Assembly (NCBI RefSeq): GCF_017348835.2
Contig: NZ_CP071375.1
DNA from: Escherichia coli
GTDB taxonomy: Bacteria > Pseudomonadota > Gammaproteobacteria > Enterobacterales > Enterobacteriaceae
Direction: 5' to 3' (one strand)
Length of the DNA: 64,000 bases
Shown: in pieces, positions 48,178-49,186 of the stretch
How positions within the stretch are numbered: the first letter of the stretch is position 1
How the letters are laid out: every line of letters begins with the position of its first letter
The notes under the pieces: generated by a model
Told to the model about the DNA's origin: nothing
Databases searched by the model: none
Seen by the model: the letters and a program-made list of their open reading frames with translations, nothing else
Translations under genes and position numbers: made by a program

Positions 48178-48237
48178 AACACAGCGGGCAGTGATGCAAC
48201 TGCCCGTTATCAACACGACTTACCAGCGGGGAAAGCG

Positions 48238-48555
48238 ATGATCGTGCAAAAAGAGCTGGTTGCTATTTACGATTATGAGGTCCCTGTACCTGAAGATCCG
48301 TTTTCCTTCAGACTTGAGATCCATAAATGCTCTGAATTATTTACAGGTTCCGTCTATCGACTGGAGCGATTCCGGCTACATCCAACATTTCGTCAACGTG
48401 ATCGAGAAGATGCTGACCCGCTAATAAATGATGCGTTGATTTATATAAGAGATGAGTGTATTGATGAGCGGAAATTACGAGGTGAATCACCTGAAACTGT
48501 AATAGCAATTTTTAATCGTGAACTACAGAATATATTCAACCAAGAAATAGAATAA
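48238..48555 (+). CDS. yehK: Uncharacterized protein YehK (105 aa)
   Basis: 105-aa ORF; synteny. Confidence 0.75.
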   Translation: MIVQKELVAIYDYEVPVPEDPFSFRLEIHKCSELFTGSVYRLERFRLHPTFRQRDREDADPLINDALIYIRDECIDERKLRGESPETVIAIFNRELQNIFNQEIE

Positions 48556-48664
48556 TATACTCTAGATAATTCAAGTCGCAGCACATGCAACTTGAAGTAT
48601 GACGAGTATAGCTTTATTAAAGGGGGAAGCGGTTTTCCCCCTTAGATGCGTTTCAATTTGCCCG

Positions 48665-48754
48665 TTACTTCAACAAATCAATCAACCGTAACAGAGCTAC
48701 TAATAGCTCCAGTACAGCAATGAGCACGGTTAACTTTTGTGTCAGCGTGTCCAT
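48665..48754 (-). CDS. zorO: Type I toxin, ShoB/Zor-like small hydrophobic peptide (29 aa: MDTLTQKLTVLIAVLELLVALLRLIDLLK)
   Basis: Not in the ORF track (below size cutoff). ATG with AGGAGA SD 4 nt upstream; single predicted TM helix with charged C-terminus; about 175-nt 5' UTR; divergent antisense sRNA upstream. Symbol from my recollection of the EHEC zorO-orzO locus, unverified. Confidence 0.65.
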   Translation of the reverse strand: MDTLTQKLTVLIAVLELLVALLRLIDLLK

Positions 48755-48935
48755 CCGCTCTCCTTATTAAGGAGCGCAACACCAGCACCTTACCCTTACA
48801 CTGCCTGTCGATACTGGTTTACGTATGTTGGACCACGATGTTGCACTCCGGATCAGGGCACCACCTGCAGCACCACCCGTCCGGTAGCCAGGACTTGAAA
48901 TAGGTTCGATCCGGCGCAACGTCCCAACGGTCTGG

Positions 48936-48963
48936 ATTATAAATCTCATTATCTTAATTGCAA
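48936..48963 (-). promoter_or_regulatory. Sigma70-type promoter for the toxin mRNA (-35 TTGCAA, 16-bp spacer, -10 TATAAT)
   Basis: Hexamers read on the minus strand; -35 shares the palindromic TTGCAA with the divergent sRNA promoter. Confidence 0.5.
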
Positions 48964-48986
48964 CGGGGTCCAGCCGTGGTTATAAT
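48958..48986 (+). promoter_or_regulatory. Sigma70-type promoter for the antisense sRNA (-35 TTGCAA, 17-bp spacer, -10 TATAAT)
   Basis: Hexamers read on the plus strand directly upstream of the sRNA. Confidence 0.5.
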
Positions 48987-48992
48987 TCGTTC

Positions 48993-49075
48993 GTTGGAAC
49001 ACGATGTTGCACAGGCTGTGGTGTTAGGCCTGAAAATAGTAAATAAAAGAACCTGCCTCACCAGCAGGTTTTTTT
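48993..49075 (+). ncRNA. orzO: Antitoxin sRNA (OrzO/OhsC-like) divergent from the toxin gene
   Basis: Short transcript bounded by the promoter and a rho-independent terminator (CCTGC-ctcacca-GCAGG + T7 at 49053-49075); its first 20 nt (48993-49012) repeat 48827-48846 within the toxin 5' UTR with 19/20 identity, giving antisense complementarity. Confidence 0.6.
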
Positions 49076-49186
49076 ATTTACTGTGATCTGCTTTCCAGAT
49101 ATTTTTCGCTCAAACAACTAATGCGCCAAACATTTATTGCGCGTAAAATATCGTTTATTTCATTAATACATTTCAGGGATGAATAT

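Follow-up and report, generated by a model that had tools for sequence, protein, structure and literature searches.

What are the two inverted repeats that lie between the stop codon of yehK and the 3' end of a convergent small toxin gene in Escherichia coli, and which of the two genes, if either, does each of them serve? Within the window analyzed here, a 64,000-nucleotide stretch of contig NZ_CP071375.1, a first-pass annotation had noted an outer pair of arms (TATACTC, 48556-48562, and GAGTATA, 48604-48610) enclosing an inner pair (TTCAAGT, 48570-48576, and ACTTGAA, 48590-48596), followed by a compact GC-rich hairpin (GGGGGAA, 48622-48628, and TTCCCCC, 48635-48641) with TTTAAT directly after it on the minus strand. 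All of these arms, and the TTTAAT, are present exactly as described. The same annotation had suggested that the second hairpin could terminate the toxin mRNA, and that the first could either terminate yehK or be a structured element, possibly one that determines how the toxin transcript is processed or how stable it is. Here we report that this 87-bp stretch is made up of two unrelated elements, each of a well-known kind. The features of the locus are collected in Table 1.

Table 1. Features between yehK and yehL, with positions numbered from the first nucleotide of the window
Feature	Position	Strand	Details and source
yehK CDS	48238..48555	+	stop TAA 48553-48555; ORF list
Hairpin 1, by sequence a 55-bp internally deleted ERIC/IRU (MITE-like)	48556..48610	- (relative to published consensus)	TATAC...GTATA termini; TA at 48556-48557 and 48609-48610
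A/T tract, weak U-tract of putative terminator	48613..48621	-	reads UUUAAUAAA on zor strand
Hairpin 2, GGGGGAA / TTCCCCC	48622..48641	-	A-U pairs extend to 48619-48644; putative zor terminator, possibly bidirectional
zor toxin ORF, 29 aa	48665..48754	-	MDTLTQKLTVLIAVLELLVALLRLIDLLK; ORF list
zor 5' UTR, 174 nt	48755..48928	-	inferred transcription start 48928; Orz pairing site 48828-48847
Divergent promoters	48936..48986		zor (-) 48936-48963, orz (+) 48958-48986; each TTGCAA / TATAAT; scan, 10/12 matches each
orz antitoxin sRNA gene	48993..49078	+	OrzP-type by sequence, identical to K-12 orz
Segment missing in K-12-type genomes, 325 bp	48573..48897		alignment of K-12 (L001 970-980) with window

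Both hairpins fold well beyond shuffled sequence. For hairpin 1 the predicted free energy is -19.9 kcal/mol on the plus strand (z -4.31) and -22.9 kcal/mol on the minus strand (z -4.78), with none of 200 shuffles as stable in either case; for hairpin 2 the values are -16.2 kcal/mol (plus strand, z -2.67) and -14.6 kcal/mol (minus strand, z -3.33), with 1 of 200 shuffles as stable on each strand, and the whole region of 111-121 nt gives z-scores of -5.4 and -4.9. The folding of hairpin 1 beyond chance is explained by its being a palindromic repeat element, as described below, and not by a locus-specific signal.

[quoted passage not shown] The RefSeq record of strain F2_81, whose sequence is 100% identical to the window over 48200-49130, has 'protein YehK' at the corresponding position and yehL beyond it, with no annotated feature in between. 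All features of a zor-orz locus are found here, namely a hydrophobic 29-aa Zor ORF, a long 5' UTR, and a divergent, complementary Orz sRNA. The 29-aa product agrees with the ZorO peptide of PMC6669753 at every residue. The start of zor was placed at 48928 because the published length of its 5' UTR is 174 nt (PMC5397157); a promoter scan finds the -10 hexamer TATAAT at 48941-48936, and, for the zor copy nearer to yehL, the annealing part of primer EF531 (GTTGGGACGTTGC) marks the corresponding nucleotide as +1. A direct repeat, gttgga(c/a)cacgatgttgcac, occurs at 48828 and 48993, giving the zor 5' UTR and Orz a complementarity of 20 nt with one mismatch (48828-48847 with 48993-49012). The TTGCAA and TATAAT hexamers of the two promoters are those reported to be conserved in PMC11264685, the study in which the K-12 orz is named OrzPmg. 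The orz gene ends in a strong terminator (49050-49070) followed by a T-run, and the Rfam model RF02083 (OrzO-P) matches 49000-49075 on the plus strand with 99.9 bits (E = 9e-17, gathering threshold 60), the only Rfam match above its gathering score when the window was searched at permissive thresholds. Matches to Thr and Trp leader and miRNA models at those thresholds were rejected as noise from the orz terminator.

The window's locus resembles zorO/orzO and zorP/orzP of EDL933 in its ZorO peptide, its Orz promoters, its yehK-yehL position and its 174-nt 5' UTR, and differs from O157 in carrying one zor-orz copy instead of two. Its nucleotide sequence and antitoxin are of orzP type, whereas its protein has the ZorO residue T3. 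As a side observation, the antitoxin and pairing region are identical to those of the yehL-proximal copy of the O157-type strain 319 and to K-12 OrzPmg, and the single copy in the window is a mix of features from both O157 copies. A degenerate zor ORF pattern, searched in one genome per species, was found in only three other Escherichia lineages, and no deeply diverged homologues appeared. Published conservation analyses of zor ended at its stop codon, leaving the 3' hairpin and the repeat beyond it outside their queries.

Judged by its sequence, hairpin 1 is a shortened ERIC mobile repeat inserted just after yehK. ERIC elements (for enterobacterial repetitive intergenic consensus), also known as IRUs and as RU-1 in the naming of Delihas, are non-autonomous, MITE-like palindromic repeats. 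Read on the minus strand, the first 34 nt of hairpin 1 are identical to the Salmonella ERIC SeRU-1 (34/34), and its final 21 nt agree with SeRU-1 at about 19 positions, counted by eye from the alignment (SeRU-1 and ERIC (RU-1) sequences from PMC2759123). The TATAC...GTATA termini and TA target duplication published as features of ERIC (PMC2759123; PMC3184786) are seen here as the terminal inverted repeats TATACTC...GAGTATA with TA ends. The imperfect palindrome with its long stem-loop is likewise present, at the free energies given above, and so is the dispersal that typifies ERIC, whose copies lie in transcribed intergenic regions of enterobacterial genomes: the 55-bp stretch, though not its flanks, finds matches in 5425 of 5426 complete E. 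coli genomes, at a median of 8 places per genome. Among these places are a near-identical 55-bp copy downstream of yafP (L003) and a 125-bp element between pgk and fbaA (L004), which has both ends in common with hairpin 1 and a long central part, the ends and central part together corresponding to published ERIC (RU-1) sequences.

The window copy is thus like ERIC in its termini, its TA ends, its intergenic site just 3' of a gene, its dispersal, and the presence of a full 127-bp ERIC at the identical site elsewhere; it differs in being just 55 bp long, with the central 72 bp, including the conserved core, deleted. A search for the ERIC core within the window gave no match because the core has been deleted, and the identification rests on the termini, both of which match, and on allelic comparison with other strains. 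Removing 72 bp from the 127-bp allele of strain EC5931 reproduces hairpin 1 except for one substitution, and the 127-bp alleles (L005, L013) align over their full length with SeRU-1. On these grounds the window copy is best classed as an ERIC derivative and not as a full member of the family. The ERIC-PCR primer sites presumably lie within the deleted 72 bp, so this copy would not prime ERIC-PCR. The Rfam model RF01391 (isrH) matches exactly 48556-48610, with 22.1 bits (E = 4e-4) against a gathering threshold of 45, and over model positions 161-216 only of 280 nt; given the low score and the partial coverage, hairpin 1 was rejected as an isrH sRNA. The matched model segment (~56 nt, with TATAC...GTATA termini) is probably itself a short ERIC-like element, and the match suggests that a comparable short form exists in Salmonella. 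The isrH model, which represents a Salmonella sRNA, seems to give weak hits on E. coli ERIC copies.

The site after yehK was read in ten E. coli loci and in three loci from other Escherichia lineages, which together form an allelic series. The site is empty, with a single TA, in L007, L010, L011 and E. whittamii (L014, GAATAA-TA-GTTTATT), the TA standing in the context GAATAATAGTTT in L014, GAAAAATAGCTTT in L007 and L011, and GAATATTACTTT in L010. The 55-bp form is found in the window, L002, L008, L009 and L012, the canonical 127-bp ERIC in L005 and Escherichia sp. E1V33 (L013), and a 205-bp ERIC with a 78-bp internal insert in L006 and Escherichia sp. MOD1-EC7003 (L015), while in the K-12 type (L001) the left arm is reduced to its first ~17-19 nt. 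In the filled alleles, TA flanks the element on both sides. The 127-bp allele carries the 8-bp sequence AGTCGCAG on both sides of the segment missing from the 55-bp form, and loss of the 72 bp by deletion between these direct repeats would be the simplest origin of the short form. The 55-bp copy at yafP has the same deletion junction, so short forms must recur or be able to spread. A scenario in which ERIC destroyed the yehK stop codon, later rescued by an AAA-to-TAA change, was rejected: the empty allele of E. whittamii has GAATAATAG, showing that yehK already ended in TAA before the element arrived.

An even sample of 60 of the 5444 matching records, classed by match span, contained 13 short (55 bp), 7 full (127 bp) and 2 long (205 bp) elements, 15 empty sites, 20 K-12-type deletions, and 3 matches away from the yehK locus. 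Hairpin 1 is therefore polymorphic at this site. It is missing in about a quarter of the sampled genomes, all of which still have zor, and strains with two zor copies lack it beside the second; it is therefore no part of the toxin system. Being a truncated mobile repeat that so many genomes do without, it finds no support as a dedicated yehK terminator either, the other role that the first-pass annotation had proposed for it.

Several further variants were observed at the site. The 205-bp alleles (L006, about 519-723, and L015) have a 78-bp central insert (CAAATCCGCATGGAGCGGATTTG...GGGCCGAATAACC) with small inverted repeats of its own. In Nissle 1917 (L012, ~455-509) the 55-bp ERIC has the left arm TATACTCATCATACTTCAAGT in place of TATACTCTAGATAATTCAAGT; this arm is nearly the reverse complement of the right arm, making a more perfect palindrome, and looks like the product of conversion within the element or of a template switch. 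The yehK frame is itself unstable across strains: it is annotated as a 'frameshifted' pseudogene in L005, L006 and L012, and in others the stop differs, with the ORF running into ERIC or through hairpin 2 (L010, 339-692; L011, 339-644; L015).

Hairpin 2 has a different distribution, being conserved in homologous loci where hairpin 1 comes and goes. It is found at all 17 zor copies in the 13 loci, always 23 nt past the zor stop codon, including second zor copies that have neither yehK nor ERIC beside them, and in two-copy strains the homology between the tandem zor units starts at TTTATTAAAGGGGG, the A/T flank of hairpin 2. Hairpin 2 thus belongs to the zor gene unit. When its eleven distinct sequences are aligned, all 99 of the 99 cells of the stem pair and 8 of the 9 pairs are invariant, and variable columns are concentrated in the loop (4 of 6) over the stem (1 of 18; Fisher p = 0.0065). 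The one pair that changes does so in E. whittamii, where the zor strand has G-U in place of A-U and the yehK strand would have an A-C mismatch; this strand signal is cancelled by the window-type loop, in which the yehK strand alone gains a further G-U pair. The eleven aligned sequences contain no compensatory change, 8 of the 9 pairs never varying at all, and the flanks are also highly conserved, so that conservation of the stem alone proves no RNA structure.

We regard it as likely that hairpin 2 is an intrinsic terminator of the zor toxin mRNA, as had been suggested from the TTTAAT that follows it, and the evidence for this part of the earlier proposal is indirect: the hairpin accompanies every zor copy, its stem is kept, and its position fits a published transcript size. 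Like the Rho-independent terminators of type I toxin mRNAs and of convergent gene pairs, it has a GC-rich stem of 7-9 bp (5 G-C and 2-4 A-U pairs, -14.6 kcal/mol) and a loop of 4-6 nt, lies 23 nt past a stop codon, and is followed by U's; an A-tract upstream gives it a bidirectional look, and it is conserved with its gene unit. It departs from typical Rho-independent terminators in its U-tract, which is short and interrupted (three consecutive U's, then AAUAAA) and fails the rule of 5 T in 8 on both strands. A consensus terminator scan using this rule called neither hairpin on either strand, the zor-strand tail of hairpin 2 having 4 T in its first 8 positions. Scored with position weights, that tail reaches 2.70, against 1.95 for the plus-strand tail and 4.68 for the orz terminator. 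The tract is conserved, as TTTAATAAA in 15 of the 17 zor copies and TTTAAGAAA in the other 2, with the three proximal U's kept in all 17.

Termination at hairpin 2 would yield a zor mRNA of 310-316 nt, from the start at 48928 to an end at 48613-48619. The major zorO transcripts have been reported as ~310 and ~280 nt (Wen et al., PMC3919570), a difference that fits the 28-nt 5' processing described for zor mRNA (PMC5397157); the agreement of 310-316 with ~310 nt is supportive only, the transcript having come from a plasmid clone whose 3' boundary is unconfirmed. The primers listed for that clone, EF531 and EF532 ('pEF21-zorO PCR', PMC3919570 Supplementary Table S2), match the yehL-proximal zorP-type copy and not zorO, EF532 annealing just outside hairpin 2 of that copy, and the zorO northern probe EF524 detects a copy other than that of EF531 and EF532, possibly a matter of table labelling. 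In the literature searched we found no 3'-end mapping of zor mRNA and no Term-seq paper mentioning zorO, and the zor papers never use the word 'terminator' for the toxin.

Taken together, the ERIC reading of hairpin 1 and the zor-terminator reading of hairpin 2 give an account of the stretch that we hold to be highly probable. An ERIC would have inserted at the TA dinucleotide directly after the yehK stop codon, and the central 72 bp would later have been lost in this lineage between the two 8-bp repeats; the order, insertion and then internal deletion, is that suggested by the alleles. Before the insertion, only ~10 nt would have separated hairpin 2 from the yehK stop, and 23 nt from that of zor. 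Hairpin 1 would be transcribed as the first 55 nt of the yehK 3' UTR, and in zor transcripts by read-through only. For the ~310-nt zor mRNA, hairpin 2 would most likely provide both the intrinsic terminator and a protective structure at the 3' end, its terminator activity and any effect on mRNA stability being inferred; it may in addition keep yehK transcription from extending antisense across the toxin gene. The ERIC identity of hairpin 1, the allelic series at its site, and the linkage of hairpin 2 to zor copies are direct observations from the genomes compared.

This last role for hairpin 2 leads to a serious alternative, that it is primarily a bidirectional terminator common to the convergent yehK and zor genes, insulating the toxin gene from antisense read-through to the same degree as it ends the toxin mRNA. 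It is serious because hairpin 2 lies ~10 nt past the yehK stop in ERIC-free alleles. The two strands also look similar, with an A-tract on one side of the stem and T's on the other (TTTATTAAA-stem-TTAGA), and it is the plus strand that has the slightly more stable fold (-16.2 against -14.6 kcal/mol) and the additional G-U pair of the window-type loop. On the other hand, the plus-strand tail, UUAGAUGC, is the poorer of the two (1.95 against 2.70), hairpin 2 has been duplicated with zor and stands beside second zor copies where there is no yehK, and K-12-type genomes retain yehK without it. We therefore consider a primarily bidirectional role rather less probable than otherwise, though well worth bearing in mind beside the reading of hairpin 2 as the terminator of zor.

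A further alternative is that hairpin 1, although an ERIC, has been co-opted as a terminator or stabilizer of yehK mRNA, or as an RNase E-dependent destabilizer of the mRNA upstream of it. Since it begins at the base after the yehK stop, transcription of yehK must include it, and RNA from either strand folds into a stable hairpin. The plus-strand hairpin is followed by GCUUUAUU (UUUAUU), and ERICs at the 3' ends of genes in Yersinia are reported in reviews to alter the level of the upstream mRNA through an RNase E site (PMC3184786; PMC10969869). However, compared with the element studied in Yersinia the short form has lost its central 72 bp, the base of its stem is A/U-rich, which is atypical for a terminator, the terminator scan does not call it, and a site that may be empty, short, full, long or half-deleted in E. 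coli argues against a conserved requirement. Co-option therefore seems unlikely; a generic ERIC effect on the yehK 3' UTR is possible. Far less credible is the earlier suggestion that hairpin 1 governs the processing or stability of toxin mRNA. Its minus strand does fold well (-22.9 kcal/mol), and it would be present in any zor transcript reading through hairpin 2, but it lies downstream of hairpin 2, the probable toxin terminator, and zorO transcripts of the major sizes published (~310 and ~280 nt) would end before reaching it; moreover, it is a dispersed repeat found beside unrelated genes, and it is absent from about a quarter of the sampled genomes, which keep zor all the same, and from second zor copies. 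We consider this role very improbable and retain the reading of hairpin 1 as an ERIC derivative that stands outside the zor system.

The alleles of this site also bear on the loss of the toxin in K-12-type genomes. The K-12-type deletion has its left end inside the left arm of ERIC, so that the rest of the element to its right is gone, as are hairpin 2 and the zor ORF; of the zor 5' UTR the right end leaves ~30 nt, and the zor promoter and the whole orz gene are kept. In the 60-record sample the match of each of the 20 K-12-type records ends at query position 95 (window 48574), and the shared end point in all 20 suggests a single event. Shore et al. (2024; PMC11264685) found ~30% of E. coli genomes to be orz-only, with 27-29 nt of the zor UTR left, and reported the orphan sRNA OrzPmg to be expressed in MG1655; our term searches of that paper returned no mention of ERIC or yehK. 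Microhomology at the junction amounts to no more than ~2 nt. Near the right end of the deletion, the zor 5' UTR at 48894-48905 (ACTTGAAATAGG) resembles the right arm of ERIC at 48590-48601 (ACTTGAAGTATG), which may be chance. One speculative reading, which we think improbable, is that the ERIC palindrome served as the break or slippage point of the 325-bp deletion, leaving an orphan orzPmg in about one third of E. coli, K-12 among them. In a related possibility, the length of the ERIC (0, 55, 127 or 205 bp) may set the share of yehK transcription that gets as far as hairpin 2 and continues antisense across the toxin gene.

Our findings leave the current understanding of both elements unchanged, and their value lies mainly in annotation. 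For zor-orz, they provide a predicted 3' boundary, at about 48613-48621, for a toxin mRNA whose 5' end is well studied, and they indicate that a polymorphic mobile repeat, standing outside the zor system, accounts for the large hairpin beside zorO in many strains, those of O157 type included. The locus is in addition a compact natural series of ERICs at one site (empty, 55, 127 and 205 bp, and a half-deleted remnant), which could be used to study the effect of ERIC length on the expression of neighboring genes. Finally, the widespread orphan-antitoxin allele arose by a deletion starting inside ERIC, and if the palindrome did act as its break or slippage point, a mobile repeat would have shaped the loss of a toxin.
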